Part shown: piece after piece, positions 11,761-57,401 of the stretch
Layout of the letters: each line of letters begins with the position of its first letter
Position numbering within the stretch: the stretch's first letter is position 1
Source of the DNA: Girardia tigrina
Taxonomy: Eukaryota
NCBI GenBank assembly: GCA_001938485.1
Contig: MQRK01218133.1
Coordinates: forward strand, 1 to 63,104
DNA length: 63,104 nucleotides
Reading direction: 5' to 3'
Translations under genes and position numbers: made by a program
The notes under the pieces: generated by a model
Seen by the model: the letters and a program-made list of their open reading frames with translations, nothing else
Databases searched by the model: none
What the model was told of the DNA's origin: nothing

Positions 11761-12396
11761 GATTTCTCAATTTCATTATATTGCACTATTTTGTATTGAA
11801 CTTTACAAAGGTCTTTTAAATTGTTTGATAATGGTATTATATTTATTTTTGTAATTGTTAAAACTTTTCAATAACGTAACAAATGCAATGATAACTTGAT
11901 TAATTAACTTTAGAATACTGTGTCTGTTTGGAATATTTTAAATTGTTTGAATGCATTTTGTTGATTCCGAGTATATTGAATTTAGAATGGTAATGGAAAT
12001 ATATTATTTTTTGTACTTACGGTAATTAACTATGCGAACATAATTAAAATAATAATAACGAAATGATAATAATATTATAAGTTAAAATTTTTGAAATTAG
12101 TAATTAAAATCTAATTTCAATTATTCAATTAAAAGAAATTTTTATAGGTTTAGAAAATTCTAAACTGTAACCTTTACAATATATTTGTGTCTAGAAAGTT
12201 TAATGTTTTGAAACTTAAATTCATTTTTTACAATTTGATTAAATATTTTTTATTTATTTAACGTTCTTATAATGAAATGATTAAAATTATTCATTTTAAT
12301 CAATATTTTTGGAAATTTAAAAAAATATTAAAGAAAGATTAAAAAATTGTTTGATTAATCATTATAATAAAGATAGAAATATAACCGATTAGAACG

Positions 12397-12519
12397 ATGC
12401 CAAACTGTGAACGATCTTCTGAGAGTTGTGATGACTCTAAATGTGATACTAATAAAATTTATAATAATAATTGTCTCAATGCTGTTAACAGTGTCAATGT
12501 TATAATTTATTGCATCTAA
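12397..12519 (+). other. Micro-ORF family A copy (40 aa)
   Basis: MPNCERSSESCDDSKCDTNKIYNNNCLNAVNSVNVIIYCI*. The cassette is homologous in inverted orientation to 56.2-56.7 kb. Confidence 0.5.
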
Positions 12520-13789
12520 AGACATTTGTTGTACTCACAAAATTATTGTAATATTATTTTTGCAACTTTCCCTTTGTGGTCAAAAAATTATTAGATATTA
12601 AAAATAATAATATGATTTAGAAGTTTGATTATTTCAAGGGATTAAACTATTTAAACATTATATTATGTAAATTGATTACATTTATAGCATTAAAATGATT
12701 AATAGTAAAAAAAATTATATTTTGGATTAAAAAATTTTTAAAATCACTATAATTTATGGTTGTTAAACACAATTCTTATTATTTCACTGAACAGTTTCTT
12801 TCATTTAAAAATTGTAGGTGTATATTAATGTATTTCTAATTGAACTGCAACGTAAATATATAATAATCCTTGTACAAATAGTTTACATGTCTTTCTGTAA
12901 CAGAAACCACATCAAAAACAAATATTTCATAAATCATTCCAGTTCACATTAAACGATCATTCTCAAATTTTAAGATTGTAAAAACTTGTTTGCATTAAAA
13001 CAAAAAAGTTGATACAACGATTTAAGCATGAATATTTGTAACAGTTCGTCATTTCACTTTAGCAGTCGGAATACGCATATCGCTCTGTAGTCTTATATTA
13101 GAAAAGAATACACACTCTCTTTCTTAAAAAATAAAATAAAAAACACCAGATATGAGGAAACCAATGAGCTTAACGAGTGTGTGTTGGCGTGTCATGCAGA
13201 GCCACTGAAATTTCCTAACCCCGATCAAGACAAACAAACACACACACTTTTGTGACTACATCTCAAAGGTTACAGTGAAAACTGAAAAAATCACAATCAA
13301 CTGATCTATCGATTTGGAATCAGCTGTGATGAATTTTATTAATATTATTCTTAATATAATTAATAAAAATAGAATATTACGATAATTTATCATGTACTTT
13401 CAAGTGTTTCGTTATCTTAAAATTGGATTTGTTTGTGTTGAAAATTGATAATTTGATTGTGTTCACAATTCAAACTGGCAATTTCATGTAACATTTGTGT
13501 AAATGAACCAGCCAGTCAATACGGATTGTCCATCGGTGTCCGGATCCGGTGTTCTGATAACCACGACGTCTGTGTCCCGGCCGGCGTTCAGTTGGTGCTC
13601 GAAATGTGGTCAAAGTGTGGGAATAAGCGTGAGTCTATTTCCATTGTTTATAAAATATTTGTTTTTTTATTTTTTCTTTTTTTTATTCCTTTAAACAAAA
13701 GTTAATTGAAATATTTCAAATAAAGAATCCGAAAAACAAAATATCAGTGTTGATTGAGTGTATATATATATATATATAATGCATTTAAA

Positions 13790-14200
13790 CATACCATTTA
13801 GACATATTTCGATCACAATCTTTGATCATCTTCAGTAATTTTATTTTTGATCTATTTTTTTATTATTATTTGTTTTTTTAATTAATATAATTTATTTTAA
13901 TTGTAACCAAATTTTTAAAAATAATATTAAGTTTCATTTTTTTTGGAAAATATTTTAACTATTTTCATTTATTTTATTTAAACATATTTAATATTAACAT
14001 CGCTTTTGGATATTAACCAATGGGTTATAGTGTCTTATTAACAATCATTCACAATGCATCCGCTAATAATTAAAATTAAAATTCTTTTGGTTAATAGAAA
14101 ATTCATTTTTTGAAATTGACGAAGTTCTATCTTTGTAACATTCGCTGTGATCAAATGTTATCAATCATGCGATCAAAATATTTCCAACGTTGATTTTTTA
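13790..14200 (-). mobile_element. Penelope-like element 3' remnant (GIY-YIG tail + pLTR)
   Basis: Minus frame FDHSEC..EFSI..NY*RMHCE*LLIRHYNPLVNIQ, followed by a hammerhead core. Confidence 0.7.
13798..13838 (-). ncRNA. Minimal type I hammerhead ribozyme
   Basis: TTA-CTGAAGA-T-GATCA-AAGATTG-TGATC-GAAA-TATG-TC-TAA: core, 5-bp stem II and 3-bp stem I. Confidence 0.7.
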
Positions 14201-14279
14201 AAAAATTCTTTAAGAAATATATATTCTAAAATTTCAAATTATTGTTCACTAGACTAAATATGTGTGTCTGTAAATAAAT

Positions 14280-15700
14280 ATATCCTGTTACAGAATAATA
14301 TTCTAAAAGCTCATTTTAAAATATAAACATTTCACATGTTTTAATGATTTATTCATCATCATCAGCAATTATAACTTTGTTTGATAAAAATAAAAAATTA
14401 AAATATCAAAAATGTTAAAATAAAAATAATTCTTCACATTTTTTGTAATATCATTAGATATTAATTATAAACTTTTATTTATTTTATTAAACATTTTAAG
14501 ATAATAAACAAGCAGATATAAAAAGAACGTCTTAAAGTTTTTGTAAAAAATGTTCCATTTCTTTTAAAGATTAATGGAACATTCAGAAAGATGAAGTCGT
14601 AATGGTTTCCGTACTAGCACCAAAGTTGGAATAATTTTTATAAAGTTTCTTGAGGATAAAATAAATATATACAAGAAAGTAAACGCCTTAGTTGTACAAG
14701 AGGTACGTGGATAATATCTAACTTGTTTTCAGAAATCAATGCCTCAAATAACCATTCTTAAACTTCATGAATGGTATTCTTCCGAATATTAAATTTACTG
14801 CCTAACTTGAAGTAAATAATCAACTTCTTTCTTCTCAGCAAGATAAATGTACATATCAAACTGAATTTATATAGAAAGATACCATATAAATGTCTATACA
14901 AACCAGAATTTATGTGAGAAAGAATATAGATAAAGTATGATGAAAAGCATAGTTCACAGAGTTCGGAATTTGAATTTAAATTATTTCTTAATGATGCTTG
15001 AAGAATAACAAACAGAGCTTTTTAAATTGGTTACATAAGATACACATACATGGGTTAAGATGATATACCAAAAGAAGAAAACATAGATAATCAAAAATAA
15101 ATCATTAATATATAATATCCTAAAAGATATAAAACATTTTAAAACAATATTTGTTAGAATATTGACTGTGTCAGTAGTTTCAATGGCATCCAAATGCGAA
15201 CTGTCCTCTCAAAAACATCGAAAACGGTTTGAAGATTGCAAGTTAATCTTTTTTCTCTAAATTTAATTATCACAGATGTCAAACATTATTATCAAACTTG
15301 GATGGAATGTAAGACTCGAGTGTCTTCTGTTTCAAAGTTTTCTATTCAATAAAAAGATTTTCATTCACATTACTAGTGTCAGTTTTGTGAATAACTATTG
15401 ATTTGACAGTATAAACTCTTAACTAACATTCGAAATGATAAAATTTACTCCCCTCAATATTTAAAATGTTTAATTAAATAAATACATAATGTGCCATTAA
15501 AATCATAAAATATTTCAATAAAGTATAAATTAGTATTTTTATTTTACAAATTTTGGTGTTTATTTTATTTTTTTAAAAACGTTTTAATTGCTGATGATGA
15601 TGTATGTAAAATCAAATTATGCACAATAATTATATTTTAAAACAAAGCTTTAAGTAAATTATATTTCAAGAAAAATTACATAAATAAATTAAAATATTTT
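14280..15700 (+). mobile_element. Decayed Penelope-like RT flanked by degenerate inverted pLTRs
   Basis: Fragments VVMVSVLAPKL, YKRYVDNI, MNGILPNIKFTA*LEVNNQL and MMKSIVHRV. Inverted flanks at about 14280-14430 and 15540-15700 carry degenerate CTGATGA hammerhead cores. Confidence 0.65.
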
Positions 15701-17649: not shown

Positions 17650-17994
17650 AAAACAAGAGCACAAGTAAAAATGCAGCAAAAAACACATAAAAGTCAGTTA
17701 CAATATACGAAAACACAATAAAAAGTTTATATAAGTGTACGTACTGCGAACTCGCATAGTATGGGGAGATAGATATTTGTGTAAAACATCCTTTCACTTC
17801 ATAATCCTTGAAGATCTAATACGCATATATCGATGATCCATGCGAGTTACCTATATGATTACAAAGGAATGAGTGACGCTTGTTTCGTGTGTCTAGGGAA
17901 CGTCTTTTTGTTGTATGAACAAGCGTCACTCGGGTTGTTGCGATCTGGAAAGTTTTTGACGAGTCACGCTCGTTCAAAGAGGTAGGGGGGTTAA
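17650..17994 (+). mobile_element. Possible piggyBac-like right end
   Basis: Cys-rich fragment YKCTYCE..IC, subterminal hairpins and terminus ...GGGGGG|TTAA. Confidence 0.4.
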
Positions 17995-19085
17995 AGAAAA
18001 CCGCCAAAAATTAAATACTTAATTGAAAATAAAAAAATGTTTACAGTTATAACAATTGATATATTTTATGAAAGAATTTTAAATAAATTTTAAAATAAGT
18101 TTTCAAATAAATTTTAAAATAAATAATAAACGGATTAAACTTTATAATATTTTAAGAAATAATTTTGTTAAATAAAAGGCTTATGGTAAAATTAAATTAA
18201 TTAGTTTTAGAATAAACTTTTATGAAATTTTTAGTTTTAATTTAAAAATAATTTTATTAATTTAAAGTTTTAAAATTTATTAAATTATAAAAAAATGAAT
18301 TCGAAGAAAAATTTAATAGATTAATTTTGGCGAAATAAGTGAATTAAAGAGAAATTTGTTTAATTATGTGAATTATTGTCATTAATAATATTTTGGTGTT
18401 AAATTATGAATCTTGATTCTAATGATAATGATAGTTGCATAAACACTACTTATAATAATATTTTCATTACTTTTCTATTAATTCAAAATAGTTTAAAAAT
18501 TATTCCCAATGTGTTAGAAAACAGAATTGTATACTAAAAAATATTTCGAACAAAATTTAGAATCAAACATTCAAAAATACTTTAAATATAAATATAAAAT
18601 TAGAGCCAAATATTAATCCTCTTCTCGACCCGTTAATTAATATATTGAAACAAATTTAGAAAATCCAAATTTTTTGATGGTGTTATACTTTATTTAATTT
18701 AATAATTTAATCATTTAACTTTGTAGTGTCTCATATTCACTTCGTTTAAAAGCTTTCATCTATAAACAATTGAAACAATTAAATGGTAATCATTTTCAAC
18801 CCTTTTGTGAATTTCGATTCATATTGAATCATAATTTATTTTAGCCTAGTAGAGGCACTTATGGATTATTAAGAAAGTAATAATGTACGATCAATATGAA
18901 AGATTTCTACTTTAAAATAATTTTAAAACGTGATTTTTCAATATTTATATTACTCGAATCTTTTAAAAGTATTATTTATTTTTAGTGTTTTTATTTGTAG
19001 GCTTCCCATTTCTTTCAATGATATTGGTCTCACGTCTCATTAGAGAATATACCCAAACTAAAGAGTATCTATCAGCCCATTGATA

Positions 19086-19181
19086 TTATGAAGAACACCA
19101 ATTTGACTTTTCATTTTTATTTAAACAACAATTTTGATTGTCCTTAAGACAATCTTTGTCAAAACTTTCATACGATTGCAT
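19086..19181 (-). other. Micro-ORF family A copy (31 aa, frameshifted tail)
   Basis: MQSYESFDKDCLKDNQNCCLNKN... Confidence 0.45.
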
Positions 19182-20989
19182 TCTAAACTAAATTGATTAA
19201 TGAAATAATTCTTATTATTTTTTAGCAAATGGGAAATAAATATTTTAATAAAATATTTACTAAAAACTTATTGGATAGGAATTAAAATGACTATTAATTA
19301 TTTAAAAATTTTTAATTTGATTTATTTATTAAAAATTGTAAAAAACTAATTAACTTAAACATAACATATTTCTTCTTATTTATTTAACTGTTTTCTTTAA
19401 ATTTTATGAGTGACATTGTATATTTATTGGAAAACCAAATATGACTTTTTTGTTACATTTATAGTACTTTATATATGAATAGAGAAGGAAAGCCAAAGAT
19501 TTATGCTATTCTCGACCCGTAATTATATATAATACGAATTTCGAAATAACGAAATAACTTGTTATAATTAATAAAAATCCTCCGATATCAGAGGAAAACA
19601 ACGCTTCATTTTCTGTAAATTATAATGCACAGGAATTGTCATTGTCATCTATATTTCACCCAGATCAAGACAAATAAAACGATAATTTAGATAATAAGAT
19701 GTTTTCAAATTGGTTGGTGTCTAAAATTTTTAAAGATTTTTTTACCTGCAGATAAAGTAATATTTTATTTTTATAGTTTTTAACAAAACGGATTAATAAA
19801 ATTATTTCATGTTATTATTTGTACATTTGTTAATCTGCTTTTCTGATAATATGAATTTTCAATTGGTGACCAAATTCAAATGTACAATATTATGAAAATT
19901 GTTAAATAAAATATATTAAAAACATTTTTTAAATTAAAACTTTCAAAGTAAAGATAAAAAAATACATCATTTATTCAATTATAGCACAAGTTTTTACAAA
20001 AAATATGAAAAAATCCATTAGCTACAGATTTGTTGTCCTACTAAAATATTAATTATTTAATTTTAGATTTTAAAACAAAACCGAAGTTTATATAAATTTA
20101 AAATGGAAATTATAATTATTTTTTATATTTTGTAAATCAGTAAAATCACCTAACTACAAGCTTCTGTTGTCGCTTTTTAAATTTAAAATTGTAAAAATAT
20201 TCTGTAATCACATATTAACAAAATCCAAAAATTATTTATTGTAATGATATTAAGGAAAGAGATTTTAAATTTTAAAAGAATATAAGTTTATTTTCAAATT
20301 TATCAATTGTACACATTTATTGATATATATATATATATATATATATATTGATTGCACACACAATTTCTGTTTCTATCGTGACCTGACATCTCAACATATG
20401 ACACTTCATCACGTGACATCTCATCACATCGTCATTTCACCATTCCATTATTATGCGATCGATACACACCTTAAATATATTTAATAATTTCATTACAAAT
20501 TTAATGATATTTTATAAAGTTAACAAAATTAATAAAAGACGTAATAAAAATTTCTAAATATTAAACTTTAAAAATATTATTATTACAAAATAAAAAATAA
20601 GAAATTAATCAAAAAATTATAAATACAAAAACATTTATCACATGACACAACAATATTGTTAATTTCAACATATTCATATTATATAACCAAAAAAAGGTTA
20701 AATTTTTAAGAGTATGAAATAACTTGTTTAACATTTTTTCATGATAAAGATTACATCCAATTTTGTCTTTCTTTTCTAAAACGCGGAATTTTTGTCTTCA
20801 ATGTACAAGAATCTGATTAATTTGATTAATTTTCAATAATGCTAAACACCTCAAACTTTTATACGTTCTTATGCCACCTAAAACATTTTATTTACAAAAC
20901 TGGTGTGTACAAATTAAAGTATTAATTAATTAATTTTATATGTGAAAATAAATTCATACTTTATTAATTAGTGGGTAATGAAATTGAAG

Positions 20990-21260: not shown

Positions 21261-22114
21261 CTAGGAATTTATGAAATTAACATATTTACAAAAGTTAAAT
21301 TTGTATATGATAATATTATATAATAACAGAATCTTAAGTTAGATTAAAATTTCCATCAAAGAACAATGATTTACTTATTCTTAGAGTATCGTGCCGTATT
21401 TAAATATCCTATTGCATCTGTGAACAAAAATATGTTTTTAAAATTGGATTTCTTTGAAAAAATAAGTTTATCCTGGCTATCCTTATCAAGACTAAATTAA
21501 TAACAAGCTGGAAGCTTCAGTAATCGCGAATCTCTGAATAGAAGCAAAATGAGTATTAACACTAGATCGGCTTTTGAAACATCCCAACTTGAGCATAGCT
21601 ACCAACTTTTACCAAAGCCGATAATGGTTTTCAAATTCAACAGTTTTTACAACCAAGAAGATCTTTATTAAAAATAAAAAATAGGTTTTAGTACTTCTTA
21701 GTCCTCTAAAGTAGATGAATCATCTTGCATTTATAAATTATCTCAAATCTTTAAATTAAAAAACAAACCAGTGTTTTCAAAATATATTTTTAGATTTTAG
21801 TTAAATAAAATTCAAAGAAGAATAACAAGCTTAGTTTTCTAAATTTTACAGGTTTTCAGTAGTACTTTACAATCCTAACCAGTCTGTGACTGGCTTCGGA
21901 TGAGAAATATAAGAAAACAAAATGAATACGATTGAGATTTTAGGAGATCTGAAAAAGAGAACAGACTAAAAGAGACCTGAAAAAAGAGACTACATAAAAT
22001 TATCGTTGTGATTATTAATTTGTTTAAGTATTCTAAAAAGAAAGTTTCTTTAAATCAAATGGCAATTTCGTCAATAAACAAAAATAACACCATTTTAATT
22101 TTAAATTTTTATTT

Positions 22115-22152
22115 GAAAACATGTTTCGCCACTTTTGTGGCATCTTCAGTTC
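22115..22152 (-). ncRNA. Minimal type I hammerhead ribozyme
   Basis: GAA-CTGAAGA-T-GCCAC-AAAA-GTGGC-GAAA-CATG-TT-TTC on the minus strand. Confidence 0.75.
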
Positions 22153-22484
22153 TGTATTTAATTAGAAAGTTATTGTTTATATAGAAAGATGACCATTACG
22201 TCATAGTGTGTTAGGTCAAAATACTCTAATATGATTGGACGAATCACTTTGCACATTTAGACTAGGTTTAAGAAACTTTTTCGGGTTTTGATTAGTAACT
22301 TTGATCACAATTATGAAAGGACAATTACTGAAGCACTCTTGATAAAGTTTCTTAAACCTAGTCTAAATGTGCAAAGTGATTCGTCCAATCATATTANNNN
22401 NNNNNNNNNNNNNNNNNNNNNNNNNNNNNNNNNNNNNNNNNNNNNNATCTTTCTATATAAACAATAACTTTCTAATTAAATACA

Positions 22485-22522
22485 GAACTGAAGATGCCAC
22501 AAAAGTGGCGAAACATGTTTTC
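22485..22522 (+). ncRNA. Minimal type I hammerhead ribozyme (inverted copy)
   Basis: Same motif on the plus strand; adjacent to an assembly gap. Confidence 0.7.
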
Positions 22523-22879
22523 AAATAAAAATTTAAAATTAAAATGGTGTTATTTTTGTTTATTCTAAAAAGATTGTAAATATTAAATAAATTCTATTTG
22601 TTGATATTATGAATCCCGAAGTGAAACCTGGAGATTTAACTATTATAAAATTCAAGTAAATTTTAGTAAAGTTATTAAATTCAAGTAAGATTTTAGAAAA
22701 ATTAAAATTTCAGTAATTAGTAAATATTTCAAATATATTCTTGTAAACCGATTTAAAGTCTAATTAGTAAGTCAAAAAAATATTTTTTTTATATCCATGC
22801 TTTATGTGGGCAGAACTCAGCTTGGCCAACAGAATTTTTTAATTTTTTATTGTATTCTTTTTGAAAATATTTTTTTTAA

Positions 22880-23279: not shown

Positions 23280-23665
23280 TCAATCATGGTAATTATTAAG
23301 AACACTAATTTGACTTTTAATATTTTTATTAACATAACAAGTTTGATTGTCCTGAAGAAATTCTTTGTCAAAGCTTTCGTACGATTGTATTCTAACTAAT
23401 TGATTAATGGCTTTAATATTATTAATATAAAAAATGGAGAATAACATAAATTGTTAAAATATTTATTCAAAATTTTATTGGTTAAAATTTAAATGATTAT
23501 TAGTTATTTAAAAAAATATATTCAATTTATTTATTTAAAAATTGTAAATAAAATTAATTAAGTTATTTAAAATTTTACAATGATTTTAAATTAGAAATAA
23601 ATTTAAACATTACATATTTTTAGATAATAAGAATTAAAATATTAATCATCCATCTGGGTAGGAGA
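23280..23665 (-). other. Micro-ORF family A cassette (motif + ATA-started 36-codon ORF)
   Basis: Motif at 23650-23665; IQSYESFDKEFLQDNQTCYVNKNIKSQISVLNNYHD*. Confidence 0.5.
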
Positions 23666-24739
23666 GACACATTTCCAAATCCACATACAACATTCAAACA
23701 CAAAAACATTCGAAATATTCCTCACAACAATAATAAATATTTAAAATCATTTTATTTCAATAAATTGAACTCGTAAATACATTTATTTATCATTCAAATA
23801 TATTTTACAAAATATTTAATAAACTTTAAAATTTAGTGGTTGTAATTATACATCCGATTTTGTTTCCTTCACCAAGACGCTGTGAAATTGTCCAATTAAC
23901 TAAAAAACTCATTTCTGGAAACGAAAATTGTAATTATTCGAATAGAGAAACTGTTCTGGTATAAATACAATATAGCGTAAATAAATGATTGTCAATTTAC
24001 GAGATAAGACTGTTTTCAGAGAAAATAAACAGTGTGTATTAACGGTTTCTATTTAGTACGAAAAAAAAACGAATCTAACTTTACATTCTGTGTGAACGAT
24101 AACTTTTTAGATATTAAAATAAAAATTGATTGTTAAATCATTTAATATTTTTTTGTGATTAAACTTCAAAATAGAATTTAAAAATATTTGAAATTTTGTA
24201 TCATTTCATGTATTGTATAATTATAAATAGTTTAGAGAAAATAATAAACTTAAGTCTTATTGAACACAATGGAAAATATTTCAACAATCGTTTACTGTTG
24301 TTTGATAATTAAACACAAAGGAATACATGAATAAAGTAAAGATGAGAAGAACTTTTAATAAATATTGTTTGATATAATATGAAAACATCATTTAAAATTT
24401 TATTTTCAGAATATACGATCCGCTTTTACATGAGTATGAGTTCTGTGTTGCAGCGAAACTGCTGTGATTAGAGTCAGATTACGTTAAGTTATTCAAGACT
24501 GCTGTAAAAATACTTGAATAAAATTTGAAAAACAAGATTCATAAAACTTTATTAACAGTACTTTAGTATGCATTATTAAAGGTACTATTAATACCCTAAA
24601 TTTACTTTAATATTCCTTCGTATGAGTTCCATAACACTTAAACAAAATTATTATTAATTGAATTATTGAAAACAAATAATAATAAATAATAATGGGCCAA
24701 TGAAAATATTTGTGGCGAGAAATAAGATAAATAAAATAA

Positions 24740-34191: not shown

Positions 34192-35493
34192 TTAAATAAT
34201 ATGCACTTGATATATACTTTGTGGCAGTTGAATATTTTTTATATTAAACTTTAAAATTCATAAAAATATATAACGACATTTAAATTTATATGATTCATGC
34301 AAAGATAAATAATATTCATATTACCTGACACAACTAAAAATATAAATATAAACAAATATATAAATGTTCTTAATGGATTAATTTACTGATCCGTTATTGT
34401 TTCTCTTATCTCTGTCATTAGAGGTAAAAAAAAGTAATTTTGACACGCCATATTAAAAAATATATATTATATATTATTTATTAATAATAAAAATCTATTT
34501 TAATAATCAAAGTGTTTCGGAATTTCAAGTTAAATTTATATTGACCTGATAGACATTCTTCTAATATATTAATAAATATTAATAAATAAATTTGTAAAGA
34601 CATTAATATGTTTTTCCTGTACACTAATATGTTGCTGGGAACCAGTACTGCTTGGGGAGCAAACAGTTGGTCCCAAGCTGCTCAAATAAGGAAAAATGTG
34701 AACAATAGAAATAATAAATATATATAAATAACATAAAATATAAAATTAAAAATTAGAATGTCGATTTTTAATTAAAAAAATATCAATAATAACGATGATT
34801 TAATAAATATTAACTTAACAACAAAAATAATGAATCCTTAATCCGAAGTTATCAAAACAACAAACAAAAGAAGACAAAAATTCTAAACAATTTTAAAGAA
34901 GATATTTTGAATTAACTCTCGGGAACGATTAATTAAGACGAAGTACAATTATTTATTCATTCAACAATTTCCTCAATCAAAATTTTGAGAATACTAATTA
35001 AAATTGACAAAGCAGAATCTCCTTCTATTGATATCAATACTACATTTCATCGATCATTTGCATTTTAATAAAATACGTATTTTTTTATTTAACTCTCCTT
35101 GACTCTATATTCTTTTGCGTGATAATATTAACTCTTCTTTTGTCCAACCATCCGTAGGTTGTTTTGATTAAGAAGGTAAATGTATTTTACTTAGAACAAC
35201 TGTTATATTCCCTTATGTTTATTTGTTTCCTTTTAAAATACGTTTCTAAAAGAAATGGACTTCAACTAATTTTTTTTTGAGATCTTTTTCTTTTATAACA
35301 TATCTTTATTTTGATGATCTTTATTTATATTCAAAATATCTACTCTCCTGCCTAAAGACAGCATTTCAAATCGATTATTGTTGTTCAAAGACTCAAATTA
35401 TTTTATTGAACTTGTGAGGAATATTTTAAATTTGGTATGTTGAAATTGGTTTGTTGAATTTTGTATGTTGAGTTCAGTATTTGGAAATGTGTT

Positions 35494-35958
35494 TCTCCCA
35501 CCCAGATGGAAAATTGATATTTTGAATGTTCACGATAAATAATTATTCGAGTATAATTTGTATTTTAAAGTACAGCATAAGATATTTAAAAACATTAAAA
35601 ATATTAAATCTTTTCAAATCTTCATATTAAAATTTAAATAAAATNNNNNNNNNNNNNNNNNNNNNNNNNNNNNNNNNNNNNNNNNNNNNNNNNNNNNNNN
35701 NNNNNNNNNNNNNNNNNNNNNNNNNNNNNNNNNNNNNNNNNNNNNNNNNNNNNNNNNNNNNNNNNNNNNNNNNNNNNNNNNNNNAAATTTGTTCGAATAA
35801 TTGTTTATTAACAAACATTAACAAAAAATTATCAATTTAGAACGATGTCGAATGACGAGAGTTTTGCTGAAAGTTGTCCAAAAGACAATTCTGATTGTAA
35901 TGAAAATAAAAGTTTGAAAACCCATGTTGGTGTTCTTAATAGAACTGTTTATCATTGA
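35494..35958 (+). other. Micro-ORF family A cassette (motif + 37-aa ORF at 35845)
   Basis: TCTCCCACCCAGATGG at 35494-35509; MSNDESFAESCPKDNSDCNENKSLKTHVGVLNRTVYH*. Spans an N gap. Confidence 0.5.
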
Positions 35959-40600: not shown

Positions 40601-41771
40601 TTTTCTAAGAAATATAACATAAATTTGGCTGAAATGAACTTTTTTGGCCAAATGTACTTTGTTTGAAGATATAAAGCTGATAAATTCTACCTAGGGTAAA
40701 AATCAAGGCTTTTTCTGAAAAACATTTTTTTTCATTATTTAAATAATTATTATTTTTCTCTTTAAATAACTTAAGGCATTGAGAATATTGAGTACTGAGA
40801 CAAAAGAAATGCACCTGCAATTGTTACAAGTTAATGCGACTCAAATTCTCATTGTTAATCCTTCGTTTTATTGCAAATATTGTTGAAGTTTTCAGAATAA
40901 GAAATGTCATTTAAAATCAACTGCCATCTACAAAATGAAAAACTTCCTGTCGATTCTTTTCTACTTAAAGATTATCAGTTATTCAACAGTAATAAACCTT
41001 GATTGAACTGAGAGAAAGAATGTTTGAATACTAGATTTAATATTTAATATGATCACAATGACATTGAATAACATAATATTTGGATGATCAGTGATCATTA
41101 ATCACTACAGACTTAAGTTGTACGAACGCGAAAACATGAAAACAAAAATATATTTTAGATAAATGTGACTATGTACCAAATTATAATATTATTTATGGTC
41201 CCACCAATAACATGTGAATATTCTACCCAGATATAAACTCAGATAATTGTTTAAAATCAAAAATCTATTTCGCTAATTTACTCTATCATAATATTTTTTT
41301 ATGAAAATAATTCACATTTTGATCTTTTTACATCTATAGACATTAAATTTAAGATATTTAATCTCAATATAAAATATCTAACGTAAAAGTATTTGATGTT
41401 TGAGTAATTAAAATTCAAATTGTATAAAAATTTTTTTCTCATTGTTTAAGAAATCTCTATTAATTAAGAATTAATTACTAATTTAAATCTCTATTAATTA
41501 AGAATTTTTTATTTATTATTTAATGTACATTAAGTTAATTTTAAAAATGTATATAAAGAATGGTCCAATTGGAACAAAATCAGCGATTTCTACGAAAATT
41601 GAACGTTTAAAATAAAGGAAGGCGAAAATACCGAAGAGAAATATTTTAAAGTGTCTCTCCATATAAATATTTCGTACCAACAATTTATAATTGTGAGGAA
41701 TATTTGGTGTGTTGATGTTTTTGTGTAGTTTTTGTATGTTTAAATGTTGTATGTTGATTTGGGATTGTGCC

Positions 41772-42250
41772 TCTCCTAACCAGATGGATTGTCAATATTT
41801 AATTTTTATAATCTGAAACTAATTTATTTAAAGTTAGATTTATTATTCAAATTTTTAGTTTTTATTATTGTACTTTTTAAATAATTTTAATGATTTTATT
41901 TTTGTAAATTTTTAAATAATTAAAATCAAATTAATGTTTAAAAATATACTATAAAAATATTTTATTTCAGCCAATAAAATTTAAAGTAAATATTTTTAAA
42001 TAAAATATTTTTCTCAAGTTAGTTCAGATTATGATGAGAGATATTGAAAAATTGATTGATGGAATCTAGTGAAAGCCTTACTGTTGATCATCATAAAGAT
42101 GATAAAAATTGTGAATATAATAAATGTTCTGACAAATGTGTGAGTTCTCTTAACAATAATAATACTTATTATTTCACATTTTTTTATAAAACTAATGGTT
42201 TAAAGCAAATAGAAAAGCAGTTACTTACAAAAATAAAAAAAAATATTTAA
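41772..42250 (+). other. Micro-ORF family A cassette (motif + 63-aa ORF at 42059)
   Basis: TCTCCTAACCAGATGG at 41772-41787; MESSESLTVDHHKDDKNCEYNKCSDKCVSSLNN... Confidence 0.5.
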
Positions 42251-44400
42251 ACAAAAAATTGATGAATTGATTTTATTCATTTTCAATAAATTTTATTAAA
42301 AATAAAATATTTCATATTTTCGTAATTTATTGAGTAGCTTGATTTATATTCATTTTAACAATTAGTTTTACAAAAAAAACTTTATTTACCAATCAATCTC
42401 TATTGATCGATACAACATTGGACTGGAAATTCGGATTTACATAAGAAAAATAATGACCTAATGATGACCGTTGTACCCTCGAAAGTAATAATAATATAAA
42501 TATAATTTAATATAATATAATGTAAATATTATAAATTTTATAATCGTCTTATATTATTTTCTGTCGAAAAAATTTGATATTTTGTCCATTAAACATTAAA
42601 AATACTGTAACATCTTTGGAAAGTGTTTCCGATTGTGAGATCAGTTAACACGATGTAACTCATTTCATCATTATAAAGGTTCAATTTCCTTTACTTTTTC
42701 GAATTTCCAATGCTAAATAATAAATCATTTGATATTTGATTCAAGTATATGTCGTAATCACTTATACAACATCATAAGATTTAACTTACTGCATGTTATA
42801 AGTCTATATACGGCACTATACGGCAAATATGGCCATGTTATATTCAATTAATACTAATATTTGTACTTTAATTGAGATAATTCTGTTTTCTGATACCTTT
42901 TAAAACTTATATACAAAACATGAATGAACAATTGCTCGAAAATTAAACGAAATGCAATTAATAATATTAATTATTATTAATTATTAGTATTTTTATCGGA
43001 AATTGTTTTAGAATATTTTTAATATAATAAATATTTTACCCTTATAAACAGACCACAGAAAAACATCAAAAACAAATCTTTATTAAAAACTTATATTCTA
43101 AGTTTAGTTTATTTTAAAGTAATTAACATGTTATAAATAGAGACAAATAATATTTTTTGCTTATATCTTTTTTTTCATGAGATTGTATATAAAAGAGTGA
43201 AAATATTAACGATTATCCTGAGATCCATTATCAACAAAACTGAGTGAATAATTTGTGTACAACGTCTAAAGTTCATCATGCACGTTAACGTGATAAAAGT
43301 ATTTAGCAATACAAAAGATATTAGTATAAAGTACTATGACTAGGATTGTATTGTTATTAGTAATAATAATATATAATAATATTATATTTGTGGTACTTAG
43401 GTAGTTATGTCAGATCCTAATCTAAAACGTTTACAATACTTAAGAGAAGTTTTGTTCTTGGTGAGTAAATATAACAAGAGATAATAATTATAAAATTTAA
43501 GAAACACCACTGTTCCGCATTATCACCCAATCACTGATTCTGGGCCTTACGAGGACCATTTCTCGGTCTATATGTGGAACGAGGATTGCTCGAGGTGCAT
43601 ATTTGGTTACAGCACTACTCGGCTTACAGATAAATGATTTCATACAAATTAATTTCACAAAAAACAATTGATTATGTTTTATTTCTTTTTTTTTAAATGC
43701 GGTGATTCCACTTTACAACATTTCATTAAAACAATTAAAATTGTTTTCTTTTTAACTTTTAAAAAAAAATTAACATTTTTTGTAACAATTATTAGTACAT
43801 TTTATTAACAAAATTCTATTTATTTCTTTGATAAGCAACACAGACTTTATCCAATGTCATGGATTTTTAATTTAAATATTAAATATTAATTTTACTTATT
43901 TATTTTTAAATTACTCATTTTAAAATTTTATTACAACACAAAATTTAATTAATTTAATTAACTTCAGTATGCCTAAGATTCGGTCAATCATCCTCACATT
44001 TTCTCCTATCATTTTTGTTGGGAGCGTTGTTGAGTTCATAAATTTTTTTTGAATTTACATTCTTATCAAATTAATAATTAAACAATTACATTCCGTAAAA
44101 TATTGTTATAGATATCTTAAAATAAGATTTTCAGAAATTTAATGTAAAAATTTATTTATGTAATAAATAAAATAACTTTTATGGCACGTTTATTAAAAGA
44201 TTTTTGCATAGATTTATTATAAAGTAAAAAAAAGTTAATTTCAATTTTGATGAAAATATTTAATTGAAATAAAATCAAAAATAATATAAAGTTTAATATT
44301 TTATTTGTGAAATGAAAATAAACTAAACTATTTTTTGGTAAATAAATTGAAATAAAATTGGCAAGTTATTAAAATCAAAACTTGAAAGCCAATTAAAAAC

Positions 44401-44439
44401 GTTTATTAATTTCGACGGTTTAACCGTCATCGTCAGAAC
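44401..44439 (-). ncRNA. Minimal type I hammerhead ribozyme
   Basis: GTT-CTGACGA-T-GACGG-TTAAA-CCGTC-GAAA-TTAA-TA-AAC. Confidence 0.8.
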
Positions 44440-45299
44440 AAATGATTTTTCAAACGAAATTTACTTATATAGTGCAGTTAATGATTATGTAATAAATACG
44501 TAATCAATACATCATTTAAAAACTCTCAACAAAGTTGTAGAGAGTGCAATTTGAACGTTAATTTTAGGATCCAAAGATCTAATATATAACGCTTCACATG
44601 TCACTCTCTCCCAATAATTTTTAAATTGAGTGCACAGAATTTTAAAATGTTGTGAATTTATATCTCCTTTACAATGTCTTCGATGTCCTGCAATGTTACT
44701 TCCACCTTCATTGCGACTGTGTTCCTGGATTGTCTTACAGAGATGACGTGAAGTCTCTCCAATGTATGTGGCGTTACATCCATTACATGTATATTGGTAA
44801 ATGAGATCCGAACACAATACCAATGGCGTTGGAGATTTATTGCCGAACATGCTTTCAATTTTCTGGGTACGGGATATTACTTTTAAACTTATTGCATTAT
44901 CTAACGCTTTCAAAATAGAATTTTTAAATATTTTAAACTCCTCTGAATATGGCACAGTTAACACATAACCAATTCCCAAACTTTTATCATTAGTGTTGCA
45001 AGATTGCTCTTGATCTTGAACATCTAAAAATTTAGCATTACTTTTTTTGTCAATTAATGTATCAATAGTTTCCTTTGTTAATTTCTCTACTATCGATTTT
45101 GAATATCCGTTATCATATAATAATTTGTTTAATTTATAAAGACTGTCATTACATCTTTAAATTTTTGGATCCTAAAATTAACGTTCAAACTGCACTCTCT
45201 ACAACTTTGTTGAGAGTTTTTTAATGATGTACTGATTATGTATTGATTGCATAATCATTAACTGTACTATATAAGTAAATTTCGTTTTAAAAATCATTT

Positions 45300-45338
45300 G
45301 TTCTGACGATGACGGTTAAACCGTCGAAATTAATAAAC
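45300..45338 (+). ncRNA. Minimal type I hammerhead ribozyme (inverted pLTR copy)
   Basis: Identical core on the plus strand. Confidence 0.8.
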
Positions 45339-47081
45339 GTTTTCAATTGGCTTTCAAGTTTTTATTTTTTGGTAACTTTTCTTTTACACGATTAAATCGA
45401 AGCACATTAAAATGTAATTATAATTTTAATTTTGGAAAATGTAATTGGAATAAAAATATAATTGTTAAACAATTAAATCGACTTAATGAAAATGCGATTT
45501 TAATTTTATTTTGGAAAACGTAATTATTAATGGAAATATAATTTTATTTTTATGTTAAAAAGGGGTAGTTTAAAAGTTGTTAAATTAAACGAAATTGCGA
45601 TTTCAAATTCTATTTTCAAAACGTTATTTTAATAAATCTAAAAGTAATATTTAAAACTATTATGAAAACGAAATGAAAAATGCTATTGTATAGAATTGGG
45701 AAATTTAATTGAGAAACAGGTAAATTTCAAGGTACAATAAAATTGAAATTTAATAAAAGATGCAACAAAATCTTTTAATAAATTCACATTATAATTTTTT
45801 ATTAAAAAAAGTATAGAATTTTAATTCGTAATAAATACAATGACCATATTTATATTTATATCAATTCTTATTTAAAATGGTTTGTGTAAAAAGAAAGTGC
45901 AAAAATTCCTCGAAATTATTTGTTTAAAATAACTTAAATTGTGGTAGAAATAAAGTTTTGCGTTATTACATCTTTTTTTTGATCAAGAACCAAATAATTT
46001 AAAAATTTTTTTGACAATGTTAAAATAGTCAGTAGCATCCAAATGGAGAGATTTGATTACTGTAAAATGAAGAACTGAATGTAAAATGAAATCTAGTTAT
46101 AGTTATCTATTCAAATGACATGGTTTCAAAACTCGTATATTGGATAGGGGGACCAGTTACATGAGTAGCCTGGGTCAAAAAATTCATTGATTAAAATCCA
46201 GAATTGGAAGAATATGATTGCATCAATTTTTTATATTTTTCAAATACATTTGTTTAACAAAATAAAACTTTAAAATAATTTATAACTTTGTAATCATATT
46301 CTAAAAAAGAAGTAACTTTTTTGTTTAAAATTGTTTTTATAGATTAATTATTTTATTTTATAAAAAAAATTTATTAAAAACGTAGTGATAATATTAAGAC
46401 ATAATTTAAATAAAAGATCAAAATGATGGATTAATCACAACAAATTAGATTTGAAAACTTCTAAGAATTGTTACTCTAGGGTAATTATATATTATATATT
46501 AACTTTTTAATCTTATGTTTCTTTGATCCCCAGAAAATTGTTCATTATTGATATTTCCTAAAGGAATGGTAACTTTACATGCTAATATAGTTACAATAAG
46601 TTTTAATAATGGAAAATCAATATCTTTTTTCAATATATTTATGTTCCTAGAATTATTTTTAGCTGTCAAAAATTGCTTGATCATCTTTGATCTTCCTGGA
46701 TTGTATTTATATCTTTATTCTCTTAAAAATTAAAAACAAATGGTAAAATTTTCAAACAAAAATCTGTGCACCATTCTTAAGAATTTATAACCACAAAGTA
46801 ATTACTTTTAGCTTATTAACTATCATTATAATGATAAAAATGAAAGCGACAACCATCTAATCCTCGTATAATATTCTTTTTCAATAGGAAAATTTGTTTA
46901 TCTATTTTTTTAGTTAAAGAAATCCTATTATATAAAAAATGGCAAAATGTTTTTAAAATTTTAATTGAAAATTTTAGGATTAGAAAATAAATCTTAAATT
47001 AAATAAATAAATTCATTAATAAATATTCTCTTTTAAATTAAATATATTAAAAAGTAACATCATAACTAACAAATATATTTG

Positions 47082-47308: not shown

Positions 47309-47341
<33 letters not shown>

Positions 47342-49444: not shown

Positions 49445-49494
<50 letters not shown>

Positions 49495-50039
49495 TATAAA
49501 TTTATTATTCATTAGAATTGAATAACATTTGGAATTGAAATAAAATTTGGAATTGAAATTCATTGAAATTGTAATATAATATTCTTGAATCGGTAATCAA
49601 TTAAAAAGTCGAATGCGGTAATTAATTATGTATTTAATTTTATTCTTTTAAACAATCTTAACTTTTTTTAAATAACAATTGTACAATTATAAATTATAGC
49701 AATCATTCACTAACAAAAATAATCATTACAATTTTTTTACATATTTTTTAATTATAAAAATATATTTACATTTATATAAAAATATTTTAATTCAAAGAAC
49801 ACACAAAAATATGTATGTTAAATTTCATTTTTTAATATAAAAAATGTGTATATTTTTTCTTATCAATCTGGAACACTACCAAACAAATTAAAAAAAAATA
49901 ATAAAAATATAGTATATGCAGTTTGTTTAAAGAGTGCTTGGTGTTCCAATGTTAATTTAGTTTTCAGTGCCTTCTTTATCTTTTATATTTTAATTTTTAC
50001 TATAAGTTTATATAATAATTGAGCAAATATTCAAGGAAA

Positions 50040-50270
50040 ATCTTACATAAAATCAATTTTATTGAAATTAAATAGGAAATTACTGAGAGAAAATGTTGCA
50101 TGAAACAGTAATGCTAAAATCTTATGCTCCTAAAATCAATTCTCAAATTCCATCTTTAACTTTGTTTACAGTGATGATTACATGTACATAATGATTATAT
50201 GAACATTACTTTGGTATTTAAATGCTAATATATCATTAATTATTTTATCTGAAGATGACGGTTAATTTTA
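50040..50270 (+). mobile_element. Decayed Penelope-like 3' end
   Basis: NY*EKMLHETVMLKSYAPKINSQI, followed by a truncated CTGAAGATGACGGTTAA. Confidence 0.55.
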
Positions 50271-52163
50271 ATGAGCTGAATTTATCTTTTTTTAAATAAA
50301 TATTTAAAGTTTCCATATTTAAAGAAGTATAAAATTGTTTTCGAAATTATATATCAGTTGCCACAAGCTTATTTACTTCTGGTTGAGTTTTTCCTTCAGA
50401 AAAACGAAATAAATGATAAAATTATTATATTTATTTGAATATTCAATTATTTTGAGTCACAAAATTATTCTTTGTAAGATCTTATGGAAACATTTTTATG
50501 GTTATCATATCTTTTGATTGTATATTTGCCAATTTTGCAATGACATTTTGATTTTTTTTAAAACGAAATATGAATGGTTTTTAGACTAATATTTTAATAT
50601 TTAAATATAATAGTTTTTGTATTAGAAAAAAGTTAAGTAGAAATAATAAGTAGAAATAATAATCAGAAAAAAATTTAAATTAGAAAAAAATAAAGAATAA
50701 ATAAACAAAAGAAGCCTTTTATTACAATCTAGCGTTTATGCCACTTTCATTATTATCATATTCTAGAGCCATCATTTAACACCACAAAAATTTATTAATA
50801 TAACAATTCACATTTCTAAAACAAATTTTCCTGTTAATTTAATTTAATTATCTCGACCCAAATTAATCTATTAATTTTTTTTGATTTAATTTTTAAAACC
50901 CTGATAATTTATTTCGAAAATTTATTTCAAAAAATTATTTAAACTTTATTTTCAAAATCAATTTTTAAAATTTCTTATTAAAAACATTTTTATTNNNNNN
51001 NNNNNNNNNNNNNNNNNNNNNNNNNNNNNNNNNNNNNNNNNNNNAATTTTTAATTTTTAAAAATATTTAATAGCAAATTAACATAAAAATATTTAACCCT
51101 TTAAATTAAAAAAATAATAAACTATTCAGGCGAGATAAAAATTTAAAATTAACTCCTCATAATCAACATAAATTTAACTTGATATAACAAAATCGTAACT
51201 AAAGGTAACATAACAAAATAATACTTGTTTCATCATCGAAAATTATTAGAGCAAGCATTGGTCGCGTTGCGATTCCATTTAACACTTTCTTGAGTCCAAT
51301 TTAAATTAAAAGTTAAATAAATATTTTTAAATCATTAAATTAAAAAAAATGAACAAGTAATTTAAATCAATAAAAAAATTAATTAAATTAAATATATTGT
51401 ATATTGAAGTATATATGGTTATATATATATAATCATAACGTTCATAAGGTTTTGTGATGATTGACGCCAATTTGATCTTTTCAGTTTATTCACTCCGAAA
51501 CTCTTCATAATCTCATCCAAAATTTCATCTTGCACAACATTGCACCACACGGAGTGGTGTCGCTTATTCGTCTCAATCTTATCTGCCTCTGTCTACGGGC
51601 TCGTCTTTCAAAAACTAATTATTTTTCACTTCGATTTCGATTTCAGTGATAGAAATTTTCGTCTTTTATATCGATAATTTGTGTGGAAAAATTATCAAAA
51701 TTAAATTGATCAGGTTGAATTTTTCGAATTAATATTCGACAGGAATTTATTTGAATTGTCAGTGTTTAGTAGTGAACAATTCACTAAGATTAAACAAAAT
51801 TTTCGAATTTTTGTTCTTTGTTTGTGATTTGTAATTTTTTCATTTAAATGGATCAATCACAGCTTTAATAGAGTTGTGCGTATGTGTGTCTATTGTGCAT
51901 ATGTGTATTTAGTTGGTTAATTGTGTGGTTTTTGGAGGGAAAATGTAAATTGTGTGTGATTGTATGCGTGTTAAAAAAATGCTTGTGTGATCACAATTAA
52001 CAATTTTTTTCTCGCAATTAATTATAATTCATTTATGATCGATTTAAAAAAAGCGTTGTATTAAAAAAGGAAATAAATAAAGTGTTTTCTCGACTTCCAA
52101 AAGTTATCTTTAATTTAAATTTGGAATTTCAAAACTTATTGAAAGTAAATTTCAAGTTATTAA

Positions 52164-53116: not shown

Positions 53117-55394
53117 TTTTACATTATTTCTATAATAATTATATAGGAATAATAAGTCATAAATTTTATTTTAACAATGATACAAACTACAATATTATAA
53201 TATTAATTAATTATTTATACAAACTAATTACAAACAATATTTTCATCTATAAAAGACAACAATGTGCATCATTAATGATAGATAAAAGATTCTTTTATAT
53301 ATTGTACATAAATAATTATTAAACTAAAAATAAGGAATGAATTTTTAAAATCATAAATTATGAAGCCATAAAATTTTATTGAAATATATCAATTTTCTTT
53401 AAAATCAAATTCACTTCAAAATTTTTTTCTAAGAATGAATTTTTTAAATAACGAGTACTTTTAATTTTCAAGTTTAAATATTTATATTATAAATAAGTCT
53501 AAATTATTATTTATTAATTATATAAACATAAAAATAATAATATTATTTAATAATAATATTATTATTATTTAAAATTAAAATTATTTATTATTATTATTTT
53601 TTACTAAACTTCAGAATTTAATCAATTTATTAAAAGAAAGTATTAAATAATTTCATTCATATAAAGAAATAAGATTAATATATTCTGCTTTACAAATAGA
53701 AATAATAATATTTATTTAGAAGTAAAAATATGATAAGTTAGTTAGACATATGTTTATTTATTTATACATAATGTATTAATAAAAATATAAACGAACTTTT
53801 TCAAGCAACAAATTGGTAAGAATAAATTAATTTATCATGAATATTTAGTTATAAGTTTAGAGTTCATTCGATTGTAAACCTATTTATTATGATATTAAAT
53901 ATATTCATTTATTATTAATATTTTAGGACAATTTAGACACAAATCCTTGCATTATTGATAAATTTAAGGCGCAATCATACAACATAACTAGATTTACCTT
54001 TCTAAATATTAATAATAATTTCTTCATTAAATATTTTTTAGGACAAATAAATGGCTTTAGGAATTTTGCAAAACAAATTTACTTATCTAATCAGTACTAC
54101 ATAAAAATACAATTTTCATGAATTATTATATATAATTATATAATCGGACCATTTCCTTGTGGTAAAAATATACGGATTCCATATCCCTTATTATTTTCCT
54201 ATTCTTTAATATTTATTATGACATAATATAATGTACATTTTTCATTTCATTCTTGGCAAAAACATTATCAAAATACAGTATAAATAAATTTCATAAAAAT
54301 ATCTAAATATCAAAAAACAAAGAAAATAAAAAAAACAAATCAAAAATTTTATTTTTAATAAATAATTTAAATCATGAGCTTAAAGCAAAAAATACAAAGG
54401 TTAGTAATGTTAAAACTGTTTTTAACGTTGATTCAAGTGGATTAAAGTTATGTTCTTGTAAAATAATTAAAATCTATGGTATCCTTCGCAATGTAGATTT
54501 TATGTTAGTTATAGTTATACTCATAATGCTATAGTTTAATGAGATTTACTTTCTTACATCATGGTTTCATCTTTGTATTTTCCAAGTGTATTAAATTTAA
54601 TTTTCCTGCAAATGTTTAGTTTGTTATTGAAATGATTTCCTGGAATGACCACCTTGACATTTGTGCATCCATAATTGGAAACACGTAAACCCAAGTTCTA
54701 GGTCACTTGAAGTAATATATGACCAATAAATAACTTAATTAAAGTATTTTTAAAATATGATCACAGGAAATATTTTGATATTTTCTTACACCATCAACAA
54801 TAGCAATTTACAAATAATTCCAAATAAAATCTAAAATACAAACTTACGTCAGAAATTCACTTATTTACCTTGTAAGTAGCGTTTATGCCACTTTAATTAT
54901 TATCAGATTCAACACTCATAATTCAATTCAGATTTTTTTATTATAACAAAAAATCACATATTTAAACAAATTTCTTGTTAATTCAATTACCTCGACAAAA
55001 ATTAATCTATTAAATGTTTTTCTATTCAATTCTTACAATTTAACAAATTTTAAAACTTTAAATTTATAAAATAATTTTCTCATTAAAACTAAAAATTTAT
55101 TTCAAAATTTATTTAAAATTATTTCATAACTTCTATTAAAATATATCAAATTTTATGACTGTAAAAATATTTTATTTATAAATAAGTATTTAATCTTTAA
55201 TTGTTTTCTTAATTATATGATTTTTAATTTTAAAGTGGAAGATTCAAATTAATGAATCAATTAATTATAAACATTTGTGTGTATATCGCTTTCTTAAGAA
55301 GACTTAAAAATCAATTATTGAATATGATTGTGATGTATGTCTTTTGTGAACGTGTTTGCGTGTATGTAAAAAAGAAATTTTTAAAAATTTATAT

Positions 55395-55429
<35 letters not shown>

Positions 55430-56231
55430 ATTATAATTATATGTAAATTGAATAAAAAAATAAAAATTGTGAAAAAAAGAATTGAGTTTTGGGTATTTCA
55501 TTGATAATTTCCAAAATTTGAAAACAATTGAATTTTAAAAAAAGATAGAAACGTCTATTGTTTACTGTAGCAACGGAATTATCGATTTAGATAACTTAAA
55601 TAAACCTAATAACTGGTGGAATTCTGTTCAGTATTATATTAATTATTGCGGTGAACGTTTGGCTTTTTTTTGAATAACATCTCCAAAATACGATTATATC
55701 TTAAATTGAATTAAAGCTAAAAAACTGTATTTAAATGATAATGACAGTAAAGCTCTTTTCGCGTCGATTCAAAATTTAAAATTGGGTAACTAATAATGGG
55801 GTTCCTTTAGGTGAACTTTAAATTTTTGATATTTTTAAATTTTTGGTATTTTTAAAAATCATATTTATATTTTAGATAAAGTAAAAATAATGTCGATTAA
55901 TTAAAATGAAATAATTCTTTAAAATAAAAAATTTAAGTCATAGATAATATTTTTACTAATTTTTATTTATTTTTAATTTTTTTATTTTACTTAAAATTTT
56001 GTTCCTCATAAATTTGTTTCAATAATGAAAATTGTGATAGAAATAAAGTTTACAAAATTATTACTTCGAATTGTAGTCACGAACCTAATAACTATAAAGT
56101 ATTTATTAAAAATATTAACAAAAATTTATTTATTTTTTATTTTACACTTTTATATTTATTTACTTTTTTTAAACTTTTAAATTTAAAAAATAATAAATTA
56201 TTTTGGCTAAATGTAAATTTAAATTAACCCC

Positions 56232-56679
56232 TCATATACCTGAAAATCCTGTATAACCTTTATTAAGAACATTTTGACAAGTCTCATTTGATTTTTTATT
56301 GCAATTACATTTAGAGTCATTACAACTCTCAGAAGGTCTTTCATCCTTTGCCATCGTTCTAATTGGTTTTCTTATTTCTGTCTTTAATCATGATTATTCG
56401 AACAATTTTTCTAAGTCATTTTTTTTTTAAATATTTAACTTCTAAAAATATTAATTAAAAATAATAAATTTTACCATTTCTTAAATAAATCCCAAAATAA
56501 TAAAAATGTCATCAAATTATTAAAAATGCATTTAATTTAAATTTTACTAGAAAAAATATTAAACTTAATTTTAAATGTGAAATTAAAAATATGAACTTAT
56601 CAAATGATTATTTTAATTATGTTCGAATAGTCAATCCTTTAAATTGAAAAAAAATACCAATTTCCATCTGGGTGGGAGA
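56232..56679 (-). other. Micro-ORF family A cassette (motif + 40-aa ORF 56354 to 56232)
   Basis: Motif at 56664-56679; MAKDERPSESCNDSKCNCNKKSNETCQNVLNKGYTGFSGI*. Confidence 0.5.
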
Positions 56680-57401
56680 ATCACCATTCCAAATTCAACA
56701 TACTTAAATCAATATACAACATCAATATATTAACACATTAAAAAAATTTTAAATATTCATCACAACCCTTTTTATCTCTTTGTACTTTAACTCAATTCAA
56801 ATAAAAGATATCTTTTTCTTATACATCTTTAAATAAATATTTATTTATCAGTCGCTCTGGTGGTGAGCAATCAGATGATTTACCCATTCTTTAAAATTTA
56901 AGAAATGAAAAATTTAAAAGCAAATTTTTAAAAATTAAAAGTGTAACATTTAATAAATTTAATATTAGAACAATTTTTGATACATTATCCAATTTCAAAG
57001 AAGAAGGATGAGGTAATCCGATCGTTATTGAGTCAGTTCTCACTTTTTCTGGTTATTGTTCAAACATCGGTAGTTTGCCATTTATCACTATCGTAGTATA
57101 CTATTGATAGAATGAAGCTCTCAATTCTCTTTTATTTGCTTCTCGTCGTTATTTTCAAATTTTAAAATTTGTGGCTTTATGTATCATGATTACAGGGGTC
57201 TGATAAACTAATGACGGAGATCAATCAATTCATGGTTCAAGTTCACTTCCAGGTCATTGTACCTTGGTTTGTCATGAATTAATATCAAATATTTCCATTA
57301 AGTGGAGTGAATCTGCATTACTGTTATAAAAGATTATTAGCTAAATTTTAAATTTATCATTGTAACCATTAAAAATTTTTTTAAGTTTTTTTTTAAAAAT
57401 A

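Follow-up and report, generated by a model that had tools for sequence, protein, structure and literature searches.

The window analyzed here, 63,104 nucleotides in full, covers positions 1 to 63,104 of the forward strand of contig MQRK01218133.1 from the Girardia tigrina genome (assembly GCA_001938485.1). Its GC content ranges from 16% to 40%, and it is packed with transposon debris. Scattered along it are six homologous units, at about 12, 19, 23, 35, 41 and 56 kb, in which the initial annotation had seen a host family of micropeptides, each short open reading frame (ORF) being served by a dedicated promoter. Self-BLAST and inspection of the sequences bore out the six units near the positions proposed, with their exact ends corrected; likewise, the core motif was found in the four copies claimed, and the six peptides read as given. 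Our analysis indicates that these units are almost certainly solo long terminal repeats (LTRs) of a Ty3/gypsy element, representing five subfamilies of one family that differ in age.

Reading of the flanks placed the LTR ends at TGT on the 5′ side and at CTTAACA or CTTAATA on the 3′ side, and the LTRs measure about 430 to 590 nt across the subfamilies. The 12-kb copy (11925..12490, + strand) has TGT...ACA ends and a perfect target duplication, GTGTC; in its 3′ part lies a leader frame of 31 codons (12397..12489, + strand), which continues into the flank up to a stop at 12517-12519. At about 19087..19357 (− strand), an LTR of the 23-kb subfamily is represented by its 3′ part, the 5′ part being absent; its leader, with the ATG at 19181, is frameshifted after about codon 23. 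The solo LTR at 23 kb (23294..23726, − strand, TGT...ATA) is flanked by ATTGT and ATTAC, with two mismatches, and carries on the same strand the core motif at 23665 and a 32-codon frame from 23390, the start position of which reads ATA. At 35 kb, an LTR with TGT...ATA ends (35413..35941, + strand) and an internal run of N at 35645-35784 has the perfect target duplication GAACT, the core motif at 35494 and a 32-codon leader from the ATG at 35845, both on the + strand. The 41-kb copy (41692..42155, + strand, TGT...ACA, core motif at 41772) shows a perfect target duplication, ATAAT, and a 32-codon leader frame (42059..42154, + strand), which at 5′ LTRs elsewhere crosses the primer site and joins gag without a change of frame. 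The 56-kb copy (56261..56764, − strand, TGT...ATA), flanked by AGGGT and AAGGT with one mismatch, carries the core motif at 56679 and a 31-codon leader from the ATG at 56354, again on the − strand. TG...CA ends were observed in the 12-kb and 41-kb types and a different element, family B, and TG...TA ends in the 23-, 35- and 56-kb types, in which the TA was placed by the position of the target duplications. Such duplications had initially been reported as missing. The claim that the short frame stays open holds in general, save for the ATA start of the 23-kb copy and the frameshift of the 19-kb copy. The TCTCC..CCAGATGG motif probably belongs to the putative LTR promoter.

We searched the genome (1.43 Gb, AT-rich, 255,254 contigs) with the 12-, 23-, 41- and 56-kb units on their own, scoring 40 places per unit. 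The numbers of first-look candidates, which are not copy numbers, were 3176, 3484, 2871 and 3661, respectively, against the family of at least six members originally proposed. The scored places share 75–82% identity for the 12-kb subfamily, the oldest one, 88–90% for the 23-kb unit and 91–93% for the 56-kb unit. For the 41-kb LTR, which belongs to the youngest subfamily, the best 39 other scored places are 97–99% identical, the match covering only query bases 1 to about 466 and stopping within the supposed micro-ORF. Homology between copies breaks off sharply at one and the same base. The recurring VLN or SLN of the peptides is indeed present, but not as a peptide feature: its codons are the LTR end, where homology stops. 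The 40-residue length common to two peptides, once thought meaningful, consists of 31 element codons plus 9 flank codons (SVNVIIYCI versus KGYTGFSGI); it is a chance coincidence, as those nine final residues are supplied by unrelated flanking DNA. Through such run-on, the frames in solo copies reach 36–63 residues.

From 154 de-duplicated rows, we retained 67 copies that are full-length, lie outside the window and are not beside a primer site or purine tract. Among these solo-type copies, 43 have a perfect 5-bp target duplication, 10 have one mismatch and 14 have more, compared with a perfect duplication in 0.65% of 2000 random pairings. The integrase end followed by a purine tract and the LTR start gave 1001 exact matches in the genome, and the LTR end followed by the primer site (TGGCGAC) and the gag start gave 803, with none for the reversed-pattern control in either case; the purine tract was seen before the 23-, 35-, 41- and 56-kb LTR types. 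The earlier remark that no transposon protein accompanies the units is true within the window; elsewhere in the genome, the LTRs adjoin gag, reverse transcriptase (RT), ribonuclease H (RNase H) and integrase. Pfam matches were obtained for 10 of 11 frames scanned beside LTRs, comprising zf-CCHC, RVT_1, RT_RNaseH, Integrase_H2C2 and rve in the Ty3/gypsy order. The best solved-structure match of the element RT is Ty3 RT (E 4.4e-33), and 79 relatives of this RT were found at E 1e-40 or better. Fixed ends, target duplications, purine tract, primer site and Ty3-order domains thus identify the units as solo LTRs. No copy with two matching LTRs around gag-pol was found among 16 stretches of the fragmented assembly; that arrangement is present in the metagenome relatives L268, L272 and L279. 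At L074:212-3400, gag and integrase, without RT or RNase H, lie between LTRs of different subfamilies with no matching target duplication, which may represent a recombinant, a nested copy or an assembly chimera.

Other repeat classes were considered for the units and set aside. A miniature inverted-repeat transposable element (MITE) or another element with terminal inverted repeats does not fit, as no such repeats extend beyond TGT/ACA and a primer site and purine tract are present; the 3′ end of a short or long interspersed element does not fit with both unit ends being fixed. The domains also point away from BEL/Pao and copia, neither of which is among the Pfam matches.

Where a 5′ LTR meets the primer site, gag opens with an ATG composed of the LTR's terminal A and the primer site's TG, and the frame within the LTR is the same as that of gag. 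The frame was observed to run unbroken from an ATG in the LTR through the primer site into gag, a Ty1-like feature of layout. This upstream ATG precedes the LTR end by 31 or 32 codons, depending on the subfamily, in 10/12, 20/33, 6/7, 57/64 and 21/25 copies of the five subfamilies (114/141 in total), and a similar leader ATG was seen in a sixth subfamily; 97 of the 141 copies have no stop between ATG and junction. Over the leader stretch, the five subfamilies are 54–77% identical. Stops make up 0.4–2.8% of codons in the gag frame, 15–32% and 0.9–4.7% in the other two frames and 11% upstream, and the gag frame is the only one that is mostly open in all five subfamilies; from composition alone, the chance of 31 open codons is 4–7%. 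Moreover, T occupies 54–62% of third positions in the leader, as against 13–30% of other positions. Indel phase, which the initial annotation had proposed as a check, favors the frame: between subfamilies the distance from the ATG to the LTR end differs by one whole codon, whereas the 200 nt upstream of the leader contain 6–13 gaps per subfamily pair, mostly not multiples of three. A primer-site spacer of 10 nt, a length that preserves the frame, is present in 96 of the first 100 listed of the 803 matches; the spacer has three main sequence forms. Pfam returned no match in the leaders or in the N-terminal halves of gag. From this arrangement of sequence, we consider it probable that the short frame is translated as an N-terminal leader to the element's Gag, starting inside the LTR and extending through a tRNA-Arg primer site. 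The initial alternative of repeatedly duplicated promoter and first-exon modules of a larger gene family holds in a loose sense, the larger gene being the element's own gag, in frame across the primer site. A first exon spliced to host exons is disfavored by the sequence, in which the homology goes past the LTR end only where gag follows.

A comparable arrangement is seen in family B. Its solo LTR in the window (54871..56236, − strand) has the target duplication AGGTA and is interrupted by some 600 nt of inserted sequence; its 16-codon leader, from 54919 on the − strand, contains a stop in this copy. Remnants of family B LTRs lie at 17994..18455 (+ strand) and at 50730..51161 (− strand), with a run of N at 50995-51044. 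The family B LTR end followed by TGGY has 435 exact genome matches. Its gag contains CCHC knuckles and shows no BLASTP similarity to that of the first family. In 40 of 45 copies, an ATG is found at codon −16, just after an in-frame stop and in frame with gag.

Related proteins were sought with the natural frame of leader plus gag, which matched 24 proteins with HMMER and none in a word-index protein search. Among them, P0001 comprises a 56-kb-type leader and Gag in one unbroken frame of 379 residues, and belongs to a cluster of 14 members. Seven of the 24 were set aside, four for want of a junction, two as flank read-throughs and one as a chimera, and 14 of the 17 related Gags with a recognizable junction have an upstream leader of 7–35 residues, although these Gags are kin rather than independent cases and gene callers favor upstream starts. 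A metagenome scan yielded 34 loci, of which the 17 that have DNA upstream of pol were examined; seven show a primer-site junction opening a long frame, and six of these seven have an in-frame leader of 12–30 codons. In three metagenome cases the leader region recurs after pol and is therefore inside the LTR. No relative was found in a scan of IMG/VR. Furthermore, the leaders of P0004, P0005, P0006 and P0010 contain a PIP-box-like motif, a candidate for binding PCNA, which occurs 4 times in 287 leader residues versus once in 5096 residues of Gag body; it is absent from the leaders of the window's family. On a four-column profile built from 13 Gag C-terminal ends, the leader ends of all seven types tested from this genome score within the top 1.9% for Gag hexamers.

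How well these data fit other explanations can be weighed against the reading as a translated Gag leader. The units could be ordinary solo LTRs in which Gag starts at the junction ATG, while a GAT/AAT-periodic U5, kept for RNA structure or packaging, leaves a frame open as a by-product. Such an account would explain why two of the three frames are stop-poor, why dN/dS is near neutral and why shared variants look neutral; the junction ATG moreover has A at −3 and G at +4, and the argument for translation of the leader is built on sequence. It accommodates poorly an in-frame ATG held at a fixed position in five subfamilies and a sixth, the independent family B ATG placed just after an in-frame stop, leaders at six of seven junctions outside the genome, length changes confined to one whole codon beside many non-triplet upstream gaps, and the concentration of the PIP-box-like motif in leaders as opposed to Gag bodies. 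We therefore regard it as unlikely. Far less probable still is a host micropeptide family, or the co-option of LTRs as host micro-genes at six places. The frames are open in five of the six window copies and end at nearby stops, and LTR-matching contigs occur in runs recorded as RNA, as such a family would have it. However, the C-termini derive from unrelated flanks with no homologous stop, one copy lacks the ATG and another is frameshifted, and rare within-subfamily variants look neutral (220 replacement : 41 silent : 21 stop). The units also have thousands of candidates each and no Pfam match, and the common termini, 5-bp duplications and Ty3/gypsy LTR identity are those by which the initial annotation itself would have abandoned its micropeptide proposal.

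Several observations weigh against a translated leader. Amino-acid constraint is weak: the dN/dS comparison that had been suggested gave 0.47–0.84 between subfamilies on only 31–32 codons, and within subfamilies the variants look neutral, those present in at least three copies (26 replacement, 7 silent, 2 stop) being no different from neutral. These counts used 125 of the 141 rows, 16 rows with indels being dropped, and the within-subfamily comparison carried little information on selection. In three of the five subfamilies, another frame besides that of gag is mostly open as well, which is expected from GAT/AAT-periodic sequence even without coding. The 41-kb type has a further ATG, out of frame, some 30 nt upstream of that of the leader; Gag could be started by the junction ATG on its own, and upstream starts are what gene callers prefer. 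No leader was seen in 3 of 17 related proteins and in one of seven metagenome junctions. Among 13 rows of the 12-kb subfamily, no copy with a primer site or purine tract was seen, so that the tie of this subfamily to gag is drawn from similarity. The RNA-recorded runs (8 of 19 listed) consist of contigs only and look DNA-like, several having DNA-like depth and many having dissimilar flanks at the LTR end. Contigs bridging the LTR/gag junction (X2 record 2, X6 records 11-12, X1 record 5 and X10 record 9) reveal no start, strand or expression, and we accordingly make no claim of transcription. As for cleavage, only 7 of 14 leaders in the protein matches fall under 5% on the Gag-end profile, seven of the 14 outside leaders show little or no likeness to a protease site (upper tail above 0.1), and one scored column of the profile may be fixed by the LTR end.

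The Gag leader that we favor suggests a putative model. The 5′ LTR would drive a transcript containing the leader ATG, at which ribosomes would start and read across the LTR end and the primer site to produce Gag with a short hydrophilic leader. Two forms of Gag are possible, since a second in-frame ATG is formed at the junction of LTR and primer site. In active lineages, selection would preserve the start codon and the reading frame and hold lengths to whole codons, leaving most residues free to change. In retroelements, the protease must be cut from Gag at the Gag C-terminal end; the last residues of the leader may likewise form a protease site, at which the element's protease would release the leader. 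We put this release forward as a hypothesis, because only half of the outside leaders score under the 5% mark. Solo LTRs, most likely left by recombination between two LTRs, would keep the promoter, the ATG and the leader, which then runs into the adjoining host DNA and would decay neutrally.

The primer site is complementary to a genomic tRNA-Arg, and 18 occurrences of the matching sequence were counted genome-wide; ARAGORN found five tRNA-Arg genes in two of five loci scanned, and no tRNA gene was found within the window. The element's own primer site pairs with the tRNA for only 6–8 nt before departing from it and is 1–2 nt longer than a copy of the tRNA. A primer site copied from the tRNA, being shorter by these 1–2 nt, therefore shifts gag out of frame: the four spacers of other than 10 nt among the first 100 listed all begin with tRNA-matching sequence and have gag out of frame. 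An out-of-frame tRNA-matching primer site was also seen in family B (L244), and a tRNA-like primer site in frame in the relatives L272, L279 and L282. In ten LTRs, picked by a pattern for the tRNA-matching form, a tRNA-Arg copy is followed by unrelated DNA (L045, L048, L049, L050 and L075-L080). Seven of these copies stop at 17–18 nt, and three extend to 39 nt, carry an incorrect base opposite position 58 and terminate at position 37. According to PMC13191261, copying of the primer tRNA in HIV-1 plus-strand strong-stop DNA stops before m1A58 (18 nt), with a minor stop at modified base 37. By analogy, modified tRNA bases would cause the stops and the wrong base in these LTR copies; such fixed copies would preserve in DNA a trace of the primer modifications at positions 58 and 37.

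Joining all these elements, one may tentatively picture a fast-evolving, LTR-encoded Gag leader of a widespread Ty3/gypsy lineage that is released by the protease and is PIP-box-like in some relatives, with the primer site in this genome having drifted in length from its tRNA, so that loss of the gag frame in tRNA-copied forms filters the progeny, and thousands of solo LTRs each delivering a promoter, an ATG and 16–32 codons for fusion to host sequences; as a whole, this combination is possible but doubtful.

Further features accompany the family in the window and genome. An inverted pair of an unrelated repeat (8623-9027 and 12517-12823, 80–90% identical) starts shortly after the 12-kb LTR. 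At positions 952-1581 (+ strand), there is an intronless dual-specificity phosphatase frame (DSPc, E 8.7e-22), either a host gene or a retrocopy. The segments 6396-7464, 9733-10653, 44371-45368 and 58366-59980 hold MULE/FLYWCH (Mutator-like) remnants, a GIY-YIG frame and a DDE_3 element. The GIY-YIG frame, presumably Penelope-like, lies between inverted arms of 212 nt, and the DDE_3 (Tc1-like) element has long inverted repeats. A near-perfect palindrome of 490 nt at 22073-22564, containing a run of N at 22397-22446, is either a MITE or an assembly artefact. Outside the window, an intronless fragment that we take to be 14-3-3-like is located inside a broken integrase of the element family (L011:1827-2354).

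In summary, this study removes a false micropeptide family; small-ORF catalogues will call such LTR leaders genes, as has happened with P0011 and P0013. If the leader is translated, the Ty1 layout would extend to a broad Ty3/gypsy lineage, LTR sequence would have a coding role that explains LTR evolution, and solo LTRs could readily supply new genes with start codons. The element resembles Ty3/gypsy (Metaviridae) in its TG start, 5-bp duplication, purine tract, tRNA primer site, CCHC gag and RT-RNase H-integrase order, but differs in that its Gag frame starts within the LTR, three subfamilies have TA instead of CA at their ends and the primer site pairs with the tRNA for only 6–8 nt. As to clade, the duplication length and CCHC knuckles are the two features that agree with the Mag lineage. 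Target duplications are mostly 5 bp long in the Mag-lineage elements of Culex, one of which is primed by tRNA-Arg (PMC3286476). Ty3 has its 5′ primer segment beside the 5′ untranslated region and not within the frame (PMC4974528). What is available of the microsporidian Ty3/gypsy paper (PMC4202319) does not mention primer sites or LTR starts, and an LTR-started gag is not described in the available parts of PMC3286476, PMC4202319 and PMC9503155. A literature search that left out most subscription papers and supplements found no paper on a Ty3/gypsy gag starting in the LTR, which does not show its absence from print. The tRNA copies in the element's LTRs, ending at 17–18 nt or at position 37, resemble HIV-1 strong-stop products, but differ from them in being fixed in the host genome and in that the shorter primer site shifts the gag frame. 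A close parallel is Ty1 of Saccharomyces, a Ty1/copia element with its start codon inside the LTR. Its primer site also lies inside the GAG reading frame (PMC4974528). Ty1 belongs to another superfamily and uses tRNAi-Met, whereas the present element has a tRNA-Arg primer, a fast-changing leader of 12–35 residues and a second in-frame ATG at the junction of LTR and primer site. Judged by its sequence, the element thus likely represents a Ty3/gypsy variant of a layout known from Ty1, in which the Gag frame begins in the LTR.

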